A DNA stretch of 63,918 nt, counting the filler, from Lenisia limosa (taxonomy: Eukaryota > Protista > Breviatea), in NCBI GenBank assembly GCA_001655205.1. It is 14 parts of 14 records of this genome, joined end to end, with 100 filler letters (N's around TTAATTAATTAA, not from the genome) between each part and the next. Parts side by side here need not be neighbours in the genome. Positions count along the whole stretch, not along the records: positions 1 to 11,177 come from LPNZ01004612.1; positions 11,278 to 15,905 come from LPNZ01007718.1; positions 16,006 to 30,156 come from LPNZ01011582.1; positions 30,257 to 34,867 come from LPNZ01007343.1; positions 34,968 to 37,423 come from LPNZ01007827.1; positions 37,524 to 42,401 come from LPNZ01003325.1; positions 42,502 to 43,629 come from LPNZ01000694.1; positions 43,730 to 45,480 come from LPNZ01005748.1; 6 more parts are not named here. One strand, written 5' to 3'. Position 1 is the first letter of the stretch. Every line of letters starts with the position of its first letter. The translations under genes were made by a program, and so were the position numbers. The notes under the pieces are model-generated. The model worked only from the letters and a program-made list of their open reading frames with translations. It was not told the DNA's origin and did no database searches. Positions 4,301 to 63,918 of this stretch are shown here, piece by piece.

Positions 4301-7300
4301 TCTCATGTCCATATTGAAGGTCAAAATGAGTACTTTCTTGGAACATACATATAAAACAGTTTATCATTGATTGTTTCCCTTTTTCCTCTATGATTCTACA
4401 TGCAATTTGTATTAATATTTAAATAAACGTACTTACTTTCTTCCCTAATCCGTCCACACTGTTATACGGTTTATCATGATATAATTGTATTAATAATATC
4501 ATATTAATCCACTCAGTCATCTTCACTTGTGAAAATGATCCAAAAAGACATGGTATGATATAAGCGATATTGGATAAGTATTTATGTAGGGCTGCGCCCT
4601 ACCATCACAGATGGAGGTGGTCCTGAGGAGAGCAGCGAGAAGGGTGGATTTTCCTAGATAGTGTTAGTGTTGTATTTGATATCATATTGATTATTGTGTT
4701 TACCAATTTTGAAGAGTGAGTAATTGAGAATACAAAAGGGTGTATTTCTAGAAAGCAATATATTGCCGTATCAAAAAGCAATCTTGAATAATAGCCCCAC
4801 CCCACCCCCCACCTGAGCCAGTTCTGCCAACAACACCAACAGACGAGCCCGGGGCAATATCAAAGGAAAGCCCATTGTACACTAGTGGCAGCTCCGGACG
4901 GTACTGTTGAGGAGAATGTTAGAAGAGTTGAAAGTGAAACCAGAATAATACGGCTTTGTTGTGGGGAACGAGGAATAGGAAATTGCTGTGAAGGGTAGTC
5001 ATCAATTGGGCAATTTGCTGCGACTCTATCCTAAGTGAGCAATTATCATTAGGTATATAGTGGACTCAGGAAAGCGAGGTAAAGACAGTAGGGTTTTGTT
5101 TGGTACGAAATATTATGAATTACTCGATAAATACTCAAAAGCCTTCGATATTCTCACAAGGCACAAATCAAAGAATAATGATAAACCGCCACCTACTCTA
5201 AAAGAAACGTTCTTGAAGGATATCGCGCCTTTGGTGAGCCAGTGGACTGGGGGAGGAAGGCCCAATTGTTGGCTGTCTTCTTGGGGCATTTTAATGGAGA
5301 AATCAATGAGACGTTGCGCTACAGTCTATAGAGTCATTGAAAAGGTGGTATGTTCTAGGACTCCGTGCATATTAACTAATAGTGCATCATCGAACCGAAG
5401 TAAAGCCCATACTATATGCGCCTCCATGTTCACGTAGTAGTAATATCTCATAATAAACTGTGTCCTCTAATTTGGTTTTAATTAGCACTAACCGCGAGAA
5501 GTCCGGACACGGATACTGAGCATTATAATCATCAATCGTGTCAGGACTTATCACGGTCACTGTAACTATCACAGCATTGATTTCTACAAGAGACCATAAT
5601 ATAGACTTCGACAAATATTTACACCGACAAGTAATTTACTATGATATACCCACCATTTGGTTTTCAAAGTCGACAAAGGTCTTGAAGAGGAAAACAAGGT
5701 CATTGGGAATGTTGAGAATGATGGAAATGGCAAGGAGAGCAATCCTGTGAGAGTGTGAGTGAAGTAATGGGGGGGGGGGGGNNNNNNNNNNNNNNNNNNN
5801 NNNNNNNNNNNNNNNNNNNNNNNNNNNNNNNNNNNNNNNNNNNNNNNNNNNNNNNNNNNNNNNNTATGAAACAAAAAAATTCCTAAATCAACTCTTTTGG
5901 TTAGAAACACACCATTAATGAAAACAACTAAACAAAAAAAGTCAAGGGCAGTAAAACTGTCACAGAAAGGAGCTCACGTGGGGTCAAGATCGTCTCTGAA
6001 GTAAACGACAGAAACGCACACGGCTCCAATGAAAATTGAGGTCAAAAAGCCCTGGCGGAAATTGTACCATGCATTGGCTTGCTGAAAGGGTGAGGGCAGG
6101 AATGGAAAATATATGAAACAAAATGGACGGGGACAGGTTTAGTAGTAAACTGAATAACAATTTGAGATCTTCTTCTAGCTTAACCCGCTTAATCCCTTCC
6201 ACTATTCTTACAACTTTTCTTTATGACCACCCAAGCCCACGATGAACGTCAGACGATTGCCGTAGTAGAGATCGGCCACCGGGTCGAATTCAGACTATCG
6301 GGTTAAAGTGGGTTGTATTTCCAGAATATCACGAATATCCGAAGCAAAGTCCTAATATACATGTATGCAGTAGGATATGAGCGGTATACTTATTACTTGA
6401 TGAATGTAGATAATAATATCATAAGCAAAAAGTGGGCAAAATAAACGATAATACTATGAACCAACAATTTGCTTCCCCCTTCCACTTTGAACATGCCGAG
6501 AAGATTGAGGGCTCTGAGTGACGCCAGTCCGGAGTAGATATCCTCAATACGTGTCAAAACTGGTGCCTGTGGAGGGGGGGGGGTAGTAGGTAAATGGAAA
6601 ATCTATGAAATGTAAAAAAAACACACCCAAATTAACACTGTTGACTAGACACACTTGATGGTTGAAAAAAAACAACAACAACAACAACAACAACAACAAC
6701 AAAAAAAAAACATAGCAGAAAAGTAATGAGTTTGGGTTTACCTTCGAGATTAGCTCAAGTCGGTATATTTCTCGGACAGAGCATCGGAATGTTTGAAGCA
6801 GAACAGCCGATGCCCAGAAGATCTGAAGGGTTGGTGATTAAACTTGAAGATCAAATGATAAATCCATTAATCCACGAATTGATACTTACTCAATAAATAT
6901 CCCCAGCCAGCATACAGGGATGATTCCGAAAATCATAAACCGAGCAATAATTGAGGCTAACACAACGGGTGCCATGAACATCAGAAAGAGGTCGATGGAG
7001 AGCATAAAACTGAAGACCAACTGAAAGATCAGAATGAGATGAAAGATGTGTTTTGTAAACAAAAAAAATGAGAGGTGCGAGTCAATATTCTAACGAATTT
7101 GTTATCATTATTTCAAACAAAAGATAGACGATCAGTTTCATTCAAGCTGATAAGGTTTCTTTGAATAGAAAGAGAAAAGGTATAAAAAATGATGAAGCAG
7201 CCTTGAAACAATTGTTACTGAAACACAAAGATATATGGTGTAATTTATGTTAATGATATACGAATGAATTTATTCCACGGCTCAATAAAACAAAAGACAA

Positions 7301-10300
7301 CGAACCTCCAAGTCAACAAGTGTCAGGTCCTTCGAAAACCTGTTTAAGATTCTTCCAACTGGGGTAGTATCGAAGAAGGCTACGGGTGCAGAGAGGACGG
7401 CGCTGGGTGGTCAATTTGATAATATATTCCAATTCTTTACATGGAAATCCCATAACATTGCTGGGTAATATGAATAAATGTATAAGATTCCCAAATAATG
7501 AACGGGGATCCTTAGTCGCCATAGTGTTCCTGTTTTTCCGACTTCCCTTTTTGTTTGAAACAAGAGAAATAATTTATATTACAAAATATTAGTACATTAG
7601 AAACCTAGCGAAAAAAAATACATAGGGACAACCTTCCCTACCTAGCCATATTGTGATGCAGCTTGTAGAGGAAGTTGGAGAATTGGTTGACAAAGTAAGA
7701 CTGGATTGATAAGGAATTGACCAATAATTTCACGAAGGTATTTTTTTTAGCTATGTTTTACATCACTAAATCCATGTGGTGAGAGCACAGAGCCATATCT
7801 CAATAATAGAGAGGAAGAGGAATTTCATGGAAAGAGCAGAAGGGAACTGGTATCAGAATAATAGATGGGAAAGAGATAGATCGCAAACCAAGGCAAGGAG
7901 TTTGATGAACGCAGACAGGAGAGCCGTAAAGAGCCAAACTGAGATGAAGAGCTCTCGTGATATTCCTTGTATAGTTAGACAAAAACAGTAAAATGTCCAA
8001 GATTAATTTCAAGCATAGTCTTGATTTTGTTGAGTGGCCAAACATAACCACCCCCCCTCACCATCAATAAAGAATGTACCCGCTTCATTCTCGAGAAAAT
8101 ATGACGCCATAAGCTGGGGAGAAGTGTAATAATAATAATTTTTTGAACTGTAATGATTCACCAGCTTTCGAATAAGACTTAAGTACTCGATATATCCTCG
8201 ATATGTATTATCTCGATATTGTACCAGAATTATATCGAGTCGCAGTAAGTTGGGTATCTCTATGTTTTCGGATATCCCAAGATTGTGACTGGTAATATCT
8301 TTACTAATGTAGTATACAGTGTGGAGAACTTAGAAGTAAATGAGAGGGGCCGTCCAAAAATGGACGCAAACAGCACCATGCAAATATTAAATGCAGCAAA
8401 ATGTGAGCTTCCCGGTCCTAAAAAATGGATTTTCTCGAAAAGCCTCGGTAAATAACGATAATGTACAGCTCTTTCTTTCGAACTGTAGGGAAGCCCTTAA
8501 ACAGAATTCATTCAAAATACCCACATTTGACATTTGTGACAATACGCCTGCCACTATAAGGGTGCCGATGATGATGAAAATGCCCTTTGTTGACGTCATC
8601 ATTTTGAGAATTTCGGCGTAGAGTGAGAAAGGGACGGCTCCTGAAGAGGTGCATAAATGATATAAAAGAAGCAAAATTAAAAGAAAAAAAGAAAAAAAAA
8701 AAGCGGTTCTGTTAGACTAATTAGGCACATGGTCCTTATCGCCAACTGTTTTATCACTACGCATAACAGTATCTGACGGGTAAACAACCATTACCTTCCC
8801 CCTCACCGGTTATGACAACATCATCATTCATGAGTTGCGCGTACTCACTCTCCTCAGACGATCCTGCAAAGCCTGCTTTGTTGGTAATGTTCAGTGTCTC
8901 AGGGGACGGTCCTGTCGAATCCGAGGAAGTTTCCTCCTCTTGCGTCTCCTTGAGGTGCACTAAATGGTGATTGTGGAGAAAATAGAATATTCCGGCCATT
9001 GGGCCCTTGCCTACATATTTATTGTTTTTGGATATTTAATGCAGTTGTGTAGTTACAAATCAACAGCAGGATTTCGTTGTACTTGACTCTTGTTTAGGCC
9101 ATCCACACCCCATTTTTACTCAACAGTATTCCTCACCAAGTTTACTGTAGATTCCCCACCCCCCTCTAACTGATCTCTGAAAACAAAGTCCCGGGTTTTG
9201 ACAATGTTTCGAAAGTTCCATCTTCGGCCAAACATCCGCTATCCAAAACTAAAACCTGGGGGAGAGGGAGTAAAATTGGAAAAGTAGACAGTTTGTAAAA
9301 AAAGAAAAAGCCTAAAATCAACTCTGTTGAGTTGGAACACAAACCACCCTGTCAGCATATTAAACACCCACCAAACAACGTCTTCGAACTTTGCAAAGTG
9401 TCTTAGACTATTTTCATTTCTAACTTTCTTGGTACAAACCCCTTTCACTCTTTCAAGTCCCCCACTCCTAAGACAGGCTCATTAACGCCCCTCTCACTCT
9501 GTCAGCAGCCTTACAAACAGCGGTGTTGTTGGTGGCAATTATTCTCGTAGTGTTACCTAATGATTCTACCAGGGCGCCTAGTAAATAAGACAATTGGCGC
9601 ATCTAAAAATGAAAGGGATAAAAGTGGTATGTTAATGGAATAAAAAAATGTGCAACCTTATCACAATTCAATAATCCCTAGTTTTTAAGGTTGCCCTATG
9701 TATTTATTTGTTTCCCAGATTTTAATACACATATCATATACAATAGCTATATATTGTTTACACTAGTAGTATGTACATTTTTGGAATAACCCCCCCCACC
9801 TTGAAGCATTTTGGCAGCAACATCAGCATCAACCGCAGATAAAGGGTCGTCCTGAAAAAATGAAGGGGGGCTTGAAGATATTGACATTAAGACGACAGGG
9901 TTTGCACGCAAATGAATGGATGAAATACTATTATAATAATACTCTAATCCAATAAATCGTATAACAATGATGGATGATGCTATAATCCAATAAGTCGTAT
10001 AACCATGATGGTGTGGATATCTTCAGCCACATATTATATGTCTAAAAGACAGGGCTTCACTCAGATCCAGAAAATTACTGAATGTCTTGACTAATCATTG
10101 ATATATTTTGATAGTATATTGCAATGAGAAAAAAAGGTTGTATCTGGCCGAAGCAGTCCACACCATCACGCTTATATTGGATTATAGTATAATATTAATT
10201 CACCCAATCATTTCGAGATCGGAGTGAAGCCCTTGCTAAAGCCATACCAAAATGGCGATATCAGGCTGGGAGCAAATGACGCGAGCAACCCTAAGAAACG

Positions 10301-63372: not shown

Positions 63373-63918
63373 TTCCTGCTTAACAAGAGCGGTATTGGAT
63401 GCGTGGGGGAAGGAAAGTTGGCTAATTTATGAACCATCAAAACTGTTGAAACATACCTGCTTGACAACAGCGGACTTTGGATTGGTCGCCTGTTTTGCGA
63501 CGGCCGTACTGGAGGGTTAGATACTAATGCAGACGTTGGACGTGTGAAGAAAAAAAAAAGTTGACTGACAACATGAGGGTTGATAACAACAAAACANNNN
63601 NNNNNNNNNNNNNNNNNNNNNNNNNNNNNNNNNNNNNNNNNNNNNNNNNNNNNNNNNNNNNNNNNNNNNNNNNNNNNNNNNNNNNNNNNNNNNNNNNNNN
63701 NNNNNNNNNNNNNNNNNNNNNNNNNNACAAAGCTCCCAACCGCATTATCGTTTCACTCCCTAGAGAGTCCAGGAACTATGGGGATTAATAATAAAAAGTG
63801 AGAATGGCTTTTTTCACAATGATCAATCGCCTTAATGACCCTTTTCCCTCTCGCAGGGAGGAGAAAAAGTATTTAAGGCGGTTAGGTTGGTCATTGTGAT
63901 CTCCATTTCTAGAAATTT

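Follow-up and report, generated by a model that had tools for sequence, protein, structure and literature searches.

A strand-locked repeat at the 3' end of introns in unrelated genes of Lenisia limosa, probably an old introner-like element

The window analysed here, 63,918 nucleotides of the Lenisia limosa assembly, is made of 14 short scaffolds of an intron-rich protist genome joined by spacers. Within it, 17 introns, which belong to unrelated genes (at least nine), share a 3' end made of a repeat of about 130 nt, hereafter D (Table 1). According to an intron catalogue made by hand for the window, D ends 15 of 73 introns, i.e., about one in five. The ABCC, DHHC and SLC44 labels given to host genes in an earlier, sequence-only reading are borne out by Pfam matches in exons (ABC_membrane, DHHC and Choline_transpo, respectively). 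For RluA and HNH, searched with one exon each, Pfam returned no match, and these two labels depend on sequence motifs. The same reading had listed about 15 copies of D, and the repeat was found at all 16 listed places on the strand given. One clear copy, 41394..41435 (-), is absent from that list, as is the weak copy at 36153..36229, which also lies outside the profile training set.

Table 1. Copies and fragments of repeat D in the window.
Position	Strand	Feature	Score	Remarks
5745..5959	-	Almost the whole of ABCC intron 5977-5745, N gap within	49.6 bits; leave-one-out 32.1	
6567..6738	-	Copy with TTG expansion, forming the bulk of ABCC intron 6741-6567	46.2 bits; leave-one-out 22.5, from 6670 only	
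9256..9376	-	End of ABCC intron 9497-9256	46.1 bits; leave-one-out 28.5	Junction in frame
10649..10809	-	Full copy, end of ABCC intron 10951-10649	92.6 bits; leave-one-out 68	Unrelated 142-nt leader; frame open across junction
11777..11889	+	Copy in orphan gene, 5' part in gap	58.0 bits; leave-one-out 44.6	
35510..35639	+	End of orphan-gene intron 35364-35639	64.4 bits	Junction in open frame
36153..36229	+	Weak 3' half and second core, intron from 36064	8.4 and 2.2 bits	
36683..36857	+	Copy with 53-nt internal duplication	75.1 and 39.2 bits	Second AG at 36899; one frame open for both acceptors
40529..40664	-	Whole DHHC intron 40670-40529 after G-run donor	55.7 bits	
41394..41435	-	Gap-cut copy, DHHC intron from 41494	21.6 bits; leave-one-out 14.9	
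41975..42114	-	End of DHHC intron 42259-41975	62.3 bits	
43841..44010	+	Tandem, older 3' half followed by D, together filling intron 43834-44010	50.2 bits	Leader remnant z 6.1
51717..51884	+	Tandem, 3' half then D, SLC44 intron end	46.7 and 10.7 bits	Leader remnant z 9.2
53714..53803	+	Decayed copy, end of SLC44 intron 53538-53803	27.3 bits; leave-one-out 10.1	Junction in frame
54643..54881	+	Gap-split copy, SLC44 intron end, D fragment upstream	16/16 match to 5' block	Identity of 3' piece 0.80; upstream fragment p 0.02; missed by core profile
57908..57971	-	3' half, end of RluA-like intron 58385-57908	33.9 bits; junction in frame	
58113..58146	+	34-nt D-like fragment inside an intron, antisense to RluA-like gene	Local alignment z 4.7; profile 0.9 bits	
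62447..62509	+	Copy in intron from 62412, cut by scaffold end	39.9 bits; leave-one-out 31.4	
63509..63596	-	Truncated copy, then tail with canonical branch motif and acceptor 63509	21.3 bits	

The similarity between these copies persists without T/C low complexity, as the earlier reading had required. A D profile deprived of the C-run and AG yielded 17 matches of 21-93 bits in 16 introns, against a top score of 6.8 bits in 20 local shuffles and 6.0 bits in the reversed window, and ordinary introns scored near zero. Leave-one-out scores reached 10-68 bits in 17 of 19 pieces; the two that were missed are short and belong to the 54881 copy, which a gap splits. Besides, the mixed-base core CCAACAGAGTTGATTTTGG had 10 matches with at most three mismatches, where 0.03 would be expected, and 3 matches were found for the GC-rich 5' block (0.19 expected), so that D is not accounted for by T/C low complexity. 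Convergence of T- or C-rich intron ends, or an assembly artefact, could be suspected since D is T-rich and N gaps border many copies. The core counts, the profile against shuffles and the leave-one-out scores refute this idea, the majority bases of DNA contigs agree with the window consensus at four positions, and we regard it as hardly credible. Summed DNA-contig depth suggests that D is present in thousands of copies. Eight contigs of RNA run X2 bear D, these contigs being of a kind that cannot reveal strand or expression and therefore left out of the evidence, and exact D motifs had no match in metagenome, viral or prokaryote contigs, nor in paper full texts. Mean identity among copies is 63%, and the closest pair in the window is 83% identical, with no young copies identical from end to end.

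In the ABCC gene, removal of 25 introns, four D introns included, leaves an open frame of 732 codons. RNA contigs give indirect support for the splicing of two of the four ABCC copies, while for most copies splicing is inferred. One contig departs from the genome at 10952, adjoining the donor of intron 10951-10649, and contig spacing is compatible with the removal of intron 5977-5745.

All 17 D introns carry the repeat in sense orientation, host orientation being set by protein in 11 of them, which upholds the earlier claim that every clear copy is sense to its host. Two other repeats, A and C, served as controls: inside catalogued introns they occur at any position, 12 in sense and 9 in antisense (Fisher p 0.002 against D; 0.011 when the antisense fragment 58113-58146 is counted; all p values here are uncorrected). 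This fragment is the one possible exception to the strand lock. In 12 of 13 complete copies, the core of D stops at most 35 nt from the acceptor, compared with 4 of 21 for A and C, which, as previously stated, lack D-like positioning. The earlier claim of a 3' position holds; the 63596 copy ends 51 nt short of acceptor 63509. D is unlikely to be directed to C-runs by sequence alone, as 14 catalogued donors have G-runs of at least 5 and antisense D follows none of them.

D also brings splice signals with it. A C-run of at least 5 lies near the acceptor in 10 of 15 D introns against 6 of 58 ordinary ones, and 9 of the 15 have a TTTAC at 9-24 nt from the end. The canonical YTRAY branch motif is found in 5 of 15 D introns and 37 of 58 ordinary introns (p 0.04). 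D introns mostly lack the usual branch motif, and there D contributes a C-run and a TTTTAC motif, likely the present-day pyrimidine tract and branch point, respectively. At the other end of the intron, G occupies position +3 of the donor in 12 of 16 D introns against 18 of 53 ordinary ones (p 0.008), or 14 of 35 when ordinary introns are restricted to the same genes (p 0.034).

Such signals could have been co-opted from a SINE- or MITE-like repeat inserted anywhere, of which selection retained only the copies serving as pyrimidine tract and branch point, whereas the neutral ones decayed. Indeed, the divergence of D equals or exceeds that of the control repeats, whose identities are 68%, 78% and 83%, and its substitutions cluster in blocks (neighbour correlation 0.39, reached in 0 of 500 simulations; 0.14 in A and 0.13 in C, not significant). 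Weak D-like traces at 20468, 8806-8641, 41197-41047 and the antisense 58113 point the same way. However, slippage in T-runs can also yield block conservation, and the GC-rich 5' block is well kept although it lies about 130 nt from the acceptor. Moreover, repeat A, with a divergence similar to that of D, retains 27 copies in both orientations, and D traces in 57 ordinary introns show no clear sense excess (6 sense, 3 antisense, at p up to 0.05), a count that also leaves a general D ancestry of ordinary introns unsupported. We consider this origin improbable.

The 5' limit of D differs among introns: in some it lies near the donor, in others D is preceded by another D or by an unrelated leader about as long as an intron. 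By leave-one-out matching, homology is visible 11 nt from the donor in intron 40670-40529 and 25 nt from it in intron 5977-5745. Extrapolation places the start of D within 20 nt of the donor for six of the 16 introns, four of these six being extrapolated from 5'-truncated matches, one of them in a weak copy. The other 10 have leaders of 62-344 nt, five of which span N gaps; no ordinary intron among 53 is 25 nt or shorter. Homology was shared by 1 of 36 leader pairs, through an A/T-rich match, and the long leaders have no common 5' half. D remnants were found in 3 of 13 leaders tested; one more, suspected on inspection of the 10951 leader, lacked significance (p 0.155) and is discounted. D introns are longer than ordinary ones (median 242 against 191 nt), and the final 5-30 nt before AG vary among copies.

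A fixed 3' end with a variable 5' extent is what would be expected if D had never made introns and only replaced or extended old acceptors, its 3' end joining the downstream exon through a ragged 5' junction while the host donor was kept. Six of the unrelated leaders measure 122-157 nt, near the ordinary median, and the 36857 copy is followed by an in-frame, 42-nt C-rich tail with a second AG that resembles an old intron end. When linear group II intron RNA retrohomes, its 3' end is joined precisely, whereas errors arise at the 5' junction (PMC3280974). The two introns where 11 and 25 nt separate D from the donor, and the shared +3 G bias, argue against acceptor replacement, and no spliceosomal element of this type was found in the literature searched; we hold it to be unlikely. 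With similarly limited confidence, D could be seen as a new selfish spliceosomal element, which by partial reverse splicing would put its own branch point and acceptor on existing introns genome-wide, so that thousands of introns would keep their old donors and share one invaded 3' half.

In agreement with the sequence-only reading, neither TIR nor consistent TSD was found at D junctions. No inverted repeat goes beyond the G-run and C-run at the termini, and junction repeats have a mean length of 1.3 nt, the same as in ordinary introns. Folding gave no stable structure in 7 gap-free D introns (mean z -0.3) and 0 consensus pairs in 8 copies, and Rfam and ARAGORN returned no match on D and no tRNA. 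The absence of a family match and of a conserved fold separates D from intron-hosted snoRNAs or structured RNAs; the lack of tRNA or Rfam match and the single orientation separate it from SINE and non-LTR elements, whose variable 5' extent it does show. A function as, or as host of, a small RNA, or pairing with U6 snRNA that delays spliceosome release, was considered because the D block TTCCAATTTTA exactly complements a U6 stretch, a length of 11 nt reached by 72 of 20,000 shuffles with a U6 that may not be the host's. By eye, the 5' block also agrees at 14 of 15 positions with the complement of the human U6 5' stem (PMC4457786). This post hoc lead is mostly rejected: the U6 5' stem is variable, with a top match of 11/12 found once among 90 U6 loci, the two blocks are not co-linear with U6, and the exact 11-mer is kept in only 4 of 19 D pieces, several of which do not cover it. 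Given also the missing fold and family matches, we judge a role of this kind very improbable.

Compared with known systems, D agrees with one part of the definition of introners in a published survey, a family of similar introns in unrelated genes (PMC9860276). The survey also demands similarity at both ends, whereas D reaches the 3' end in 12 of 13 complete copies and the 5' end directly in 2 of 16 introns and by extrapolation in 4 more, with unrelated leaders. Since this similarity fails at the 5' end and its intron positions are new only putatively, D is not filed as an introner. Micromonas introner elements (IE-A and others; PMC3879977, PMC4540971) are, like D, high-copy, sense-only, in unrelated genes and a large share of introns, with nested or merged copies and remnants within old introns (PMC3879977); decay is much further advanced in D, which shows no donor motif common to its copies apart from the +3 G bias and, in 10 of 16 introns, makes up just the 3' part. 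Fungal introner-like elements (PMC3609843; PMC9860276) share with D the sense-only, genic distribution (one weak D fragment being antisense), the absence of TIR and TSD, a length above that of ordinary introns and decay toward them, whereas D lacks their stable predicted structure, is not near-identical end to end and resides in a breviate, a placement in keeping with one protein hit at 57%; the cyclin exon carried no signal of lineage. DNA-transposon introners (PMC9860276; bioRxiv 10.1101/2024.06.04.597373) resemble it in mobile origin and in giving a splice site, but D has neither TIR nor TSD and is strictly strand-locked, while the TIR-bearing repeat A occurs here in both orientations. Linear group II introns (PMC3280974) offer an analogy of mechanism only, the precise 3' and ragged 5' join; D has neither a ribozyme fold nor an ORF, and the bases just ahead of its AG are unconserved.

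Common descent, a locked strand, 3' position and tandem copies, with no TIR, TSD or fold, characterise D, and its copies must descend from one mobile ancestor. We somewhat favour an old, introner-like element of the RNA route that both made new introns and captured existing acceptors. Excised D intron RNA would have been reverse-spliced into transcribed sequence and then copied to DNA, in line with a published R-loop model of reverse splicing (PMC4540971). Insertion in exons would have produced new introns, the short-leader class, while insertion at or just before an existing acceptor, or beside an older D, would have captured the 3' splice site, giving the long-leader and tandem classes. Sense copies deep within introns would have been purged, because their acceptor would make the remaining intron exonic, and a splicing role of TTTTAC and the C-run may have slowed the decay of the 3' part. 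This favoured reading draws on the 17/17 sense copies, acceptor proximity, D near the donor, +3 G, C-runs and leader remnants. Against it stand the lack of a common 5' end, the unrelated leaders, the lack of a stable fold and of young copies, and the variable bases before AG, which are contrary to a precise reverse-splicing product. The earlier proposal of either an ageing intron-generating element or a selected RNA module defining 3' splice sites is thus retained in part: the mobile origin stands, a splicing role is likely and the two are compatible, but the introner label is unproven and the leaders are without homology. A purely selected module is insufficient since it leaves the lack of neutral antisense copies unexplained.

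The origin of introns, and whether any spread via RNA, is an open question. Introner surveys detect young families and discard those similar at one end only (PMC9860276), and therefore a D-like family would be missed; names of the host lineage were not found in the survey tables. With 15 of 73 catalogued introns, D may offer a late stage of introner decay. The favoured explanation predicts that short-leader D introns lie at new positions and long-leader ones at old positions. If all D-intron positions were old, D would be a new type of acceptor-replacing element.

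All the copies of D, the ~130-nt repeat forming the 3' end of introns in unrelated genes, that the sequence-only reading had listed were found again. Their alignment spans ~120 columns, in blocks split by slippage-prone spacers. A D profile deprived of the C-run and the AG gave 17 matches (21-93 bits) in 16 introns, shuffled sequences scoring at most 6.8 bits. Leave-one-out scoring recovered 17 of 19 D pieces (10-68 bits), and of two mixed-base D motifs, one was present 10 times (0.03 expected) and the other 3 times (0.19 expected). The 17th D intron (acceptor 54881, SLC44) is split by a gap and was recognized by a 16/16 match to the 5' block and by its 3' piece. 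Of the 73 introns whose acceptor is visible in the hand-made catalogue, in which errors are possible in orphan genes, 15 carry D; two more D introns have their acceptor in a gap. Pairwise identity among copies (mean 63%, range 0.44-0.83) is lower than in the comparison repeats A, B and C (Table). The D copies derive from a common ancestor, and that D should be an artefact is hardly credible. Very decayed D introns, left out of the D count, may also lie at 41047-41197 (-) and 8641-8806 (-) (local alignment p <=0.01).

Table. Repeats and other features of the window
Feature	Positions	Pairwise identity	Description
Repeat A	2346-2450, 46477-46581, 54076-54180 and others	68%	~95 nt, MITE-like, long inverted ends; 27 matches in the window; summed DNA depth ~3x that of D
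Repeat B	2699-2760, 62839-62898, 63304-63364	83%	Short palindromic MITE-like family; youngest of A, B, C and D
Repeat C	10134-10204, 35150-35229, 46356-46429, 62929-63006	78%	Both orientations; no terminal inverted repeats; small hairpin near T-rich end; presumably Helitron-associated more than MITE-like
Long exons	38517-39053 (+), 43060-43615 (+)		M/N/Q-rich, low complexity; two scaffolds
Acceptor-like block	36620-36665 (+)		C-rich, terminal AG; 14 nt upstream of a D copy

The proposed strand lock held, all 17 D introns being sense to their host; orientation was given by Pfam for 10 hosts and, for one more, by a presumed protein motif. Within catalogued introns, the controls A and C were 8 sense/5 antisense and 4/4, respectively (Fisher p 0.002 versus D), the orientation of A being less certain because this repeat is nearly palindromic. 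Counting the single antisense D-like fragment, 34 nt long and located in an intron of the RluA-like gene (58113-58146 (+)), brings p to 0.011. Base pairing of this fragment with the D core at 57925-57965 (-), in the same intron beyond an N gap, is conceivable. Placement at the acceptor was likewise borne out, the core ending <=35 nt away in 12 of 13 complete copies versus 4 of 21 for A and C. Random insertion of D, with survivors kept by selection, is improbable, since a DNA transposon or SINE landing at random would be expected to leave neutral copies in antisense too; A and C have such copies, whereas D has at most one fragment. D thus needs an orientation-aware route.

Most D copies are probably spliced out. 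One contig of the RNA sequencing run X2 spans two exons (5977-6081 and 5197-5325) separated by 90 nt, i.e., the intervening 91-nt exon minus one shared G, which fits the removal of D intron 5977-5745, the middle piece itself not being listed. Another departs from the genome at 10952, adjoining the donor of D intron 10951-10649. ABCC exons joined across 25 introns gave 732 codons with no stop, and the tested junctions of the SLC44, RluA-like and DHHC genes are in frame.

The window (37% GC, 14 short scaffolds with spacers between) comes from an intron-rich eukaryote. Pfam matches were obtained in 5 of 15 exon pieces scanned (ABC_membrane, DHHC, Choline_transpo, LisH). The gene with LisH, Q-rich and WD40-like parts (32105-34867 (+)), whose layout we take to be LEUNIG-like, carries D in none of its nine catalogued introns, versus three D introns each in DHHC and SLC44. 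A spliced ORF at 20042-21060 (+) gave no Pfam match, has motifs presumably recalling a pogo-like DDE transposase, and contains, in its intron 20422-20583, a sense D fragment of 18 nt (at 20468). Window-wide, G-runs follow many donors (>=5 G in 14 catalogued introns), and G- or C-runs often mark the start of assembly gaps. Pygsuia is a breviate. The sole match of the LisH exon was a 755-aa protein (57% identity, accession prefix GCRY01), GCRY00000000.1 being Pygsuia biforma in the available part of PMC7449678. Judged by this single match, the window probably belongs to a breviate.

At the 3' end, the C-run goes with D (10/15 D introns versus 6/58 ordinary introns, which lack D), and the final 5-30 nt vary from copy to copy. 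Canonical YTRAY was present in 5/15 D introns versus 37/58 ordinary ones (p 0.04); TTTAC, found 9-24 nt upstream of the intron end in 9/15, would be the D intron branch point. No stable fold was detected in seven D introns (folding z mean -0.3), and no consensus base pairs among eight aligned copies; that D is a hosted RNA or pairs with U6 is very improbable. As first reported, target-site duplication is absent, the mean junction repeat being no longer in D introns than in ordinary ones (1.3 nt in both). At acceptor 36857, D is followed by a 42-nt in-frame tail with a second AG at its end (36899), which, in this one case, would be the expected trace of an insertion immediately upstream of an old acceptor. 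This intron shows three successive acceptor-like modules (36664, 36857, 36899).

The 5' side decides between the readings, and its evidence is mixed. Extrapolated leaders, between donor and D, are short in six introns (-3, 1, 6, 10, 14 and 20 nt) and measure 62, 97, 122, 133, 134, 140, 142, 157, 302 and 344 nt in the other ten, five of these 16 lengths crossing N gaps. D homology was directly seen as close as 11 nt to the donor in one intron and 25 nt in another; the remaining four short values presuppose a truncated match. None of 53 ordinary introns is <=25 nt and three are <=60 nt. Long leaders are unrelated to one another (a match in 1 of 36 pairs), and a second D piece lies within 3 of 13 leaders tested. 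A +3 G at the donor occurs in 12/16 D versus 18/53 ordinary introns. By analogy with how linear group II introns retrohome (PMC3280974, available part), D might be an acceptor-replacing element, which we consider unlikely. Reverse splicing into transcribed sequence would be an orientation-aware route, as proposed for Micromonas introners in the parts available of PMC3879977 and PMC4540971, and we lean toward D having spread by it.

Contigs of the DNA sequencing run X1 were compared with window 1-11177 at 85% likeness and their depths summed. The D core reached 166,648. Most single-copy contigs had 28-37, which puts the D core about 4,500- to 6,000-fold higher, summed depth not being a copy number. 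This suggests thousands of D copies. Majority bases of X1 contigs match the D consensus of the window at four positions, X1 possibly being the source of the window and hence not independent of it.

No published report of a D-like family was found in the literature searched, nor any occurrence of three D motifs in published text. The names Breviat, Pygsuia and Apusom are absent from 12 of 14 supplementary files of PMC12130899 and from the available part of one file of PMC9860276; Thecamonas is entered in these supplements as without introners. D resembles introners lacking terminal inverted repeats or target-site duplications in its way of working. However, it does not pass the survey pipeline, which requires similarity at both ends (PMC9860276, available part), and fungal elements have a stable fold, which D does not (PMC3609843, available part). 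About 72% of known introner families are unclassified, according to the accessible part of bioRxiv 10.1101/2024.06.04.597373. D is a real, high-copy, strand-locked family of introner kind, not assigned as an introner member, and its surprise lies in conservation at the 3' end only.
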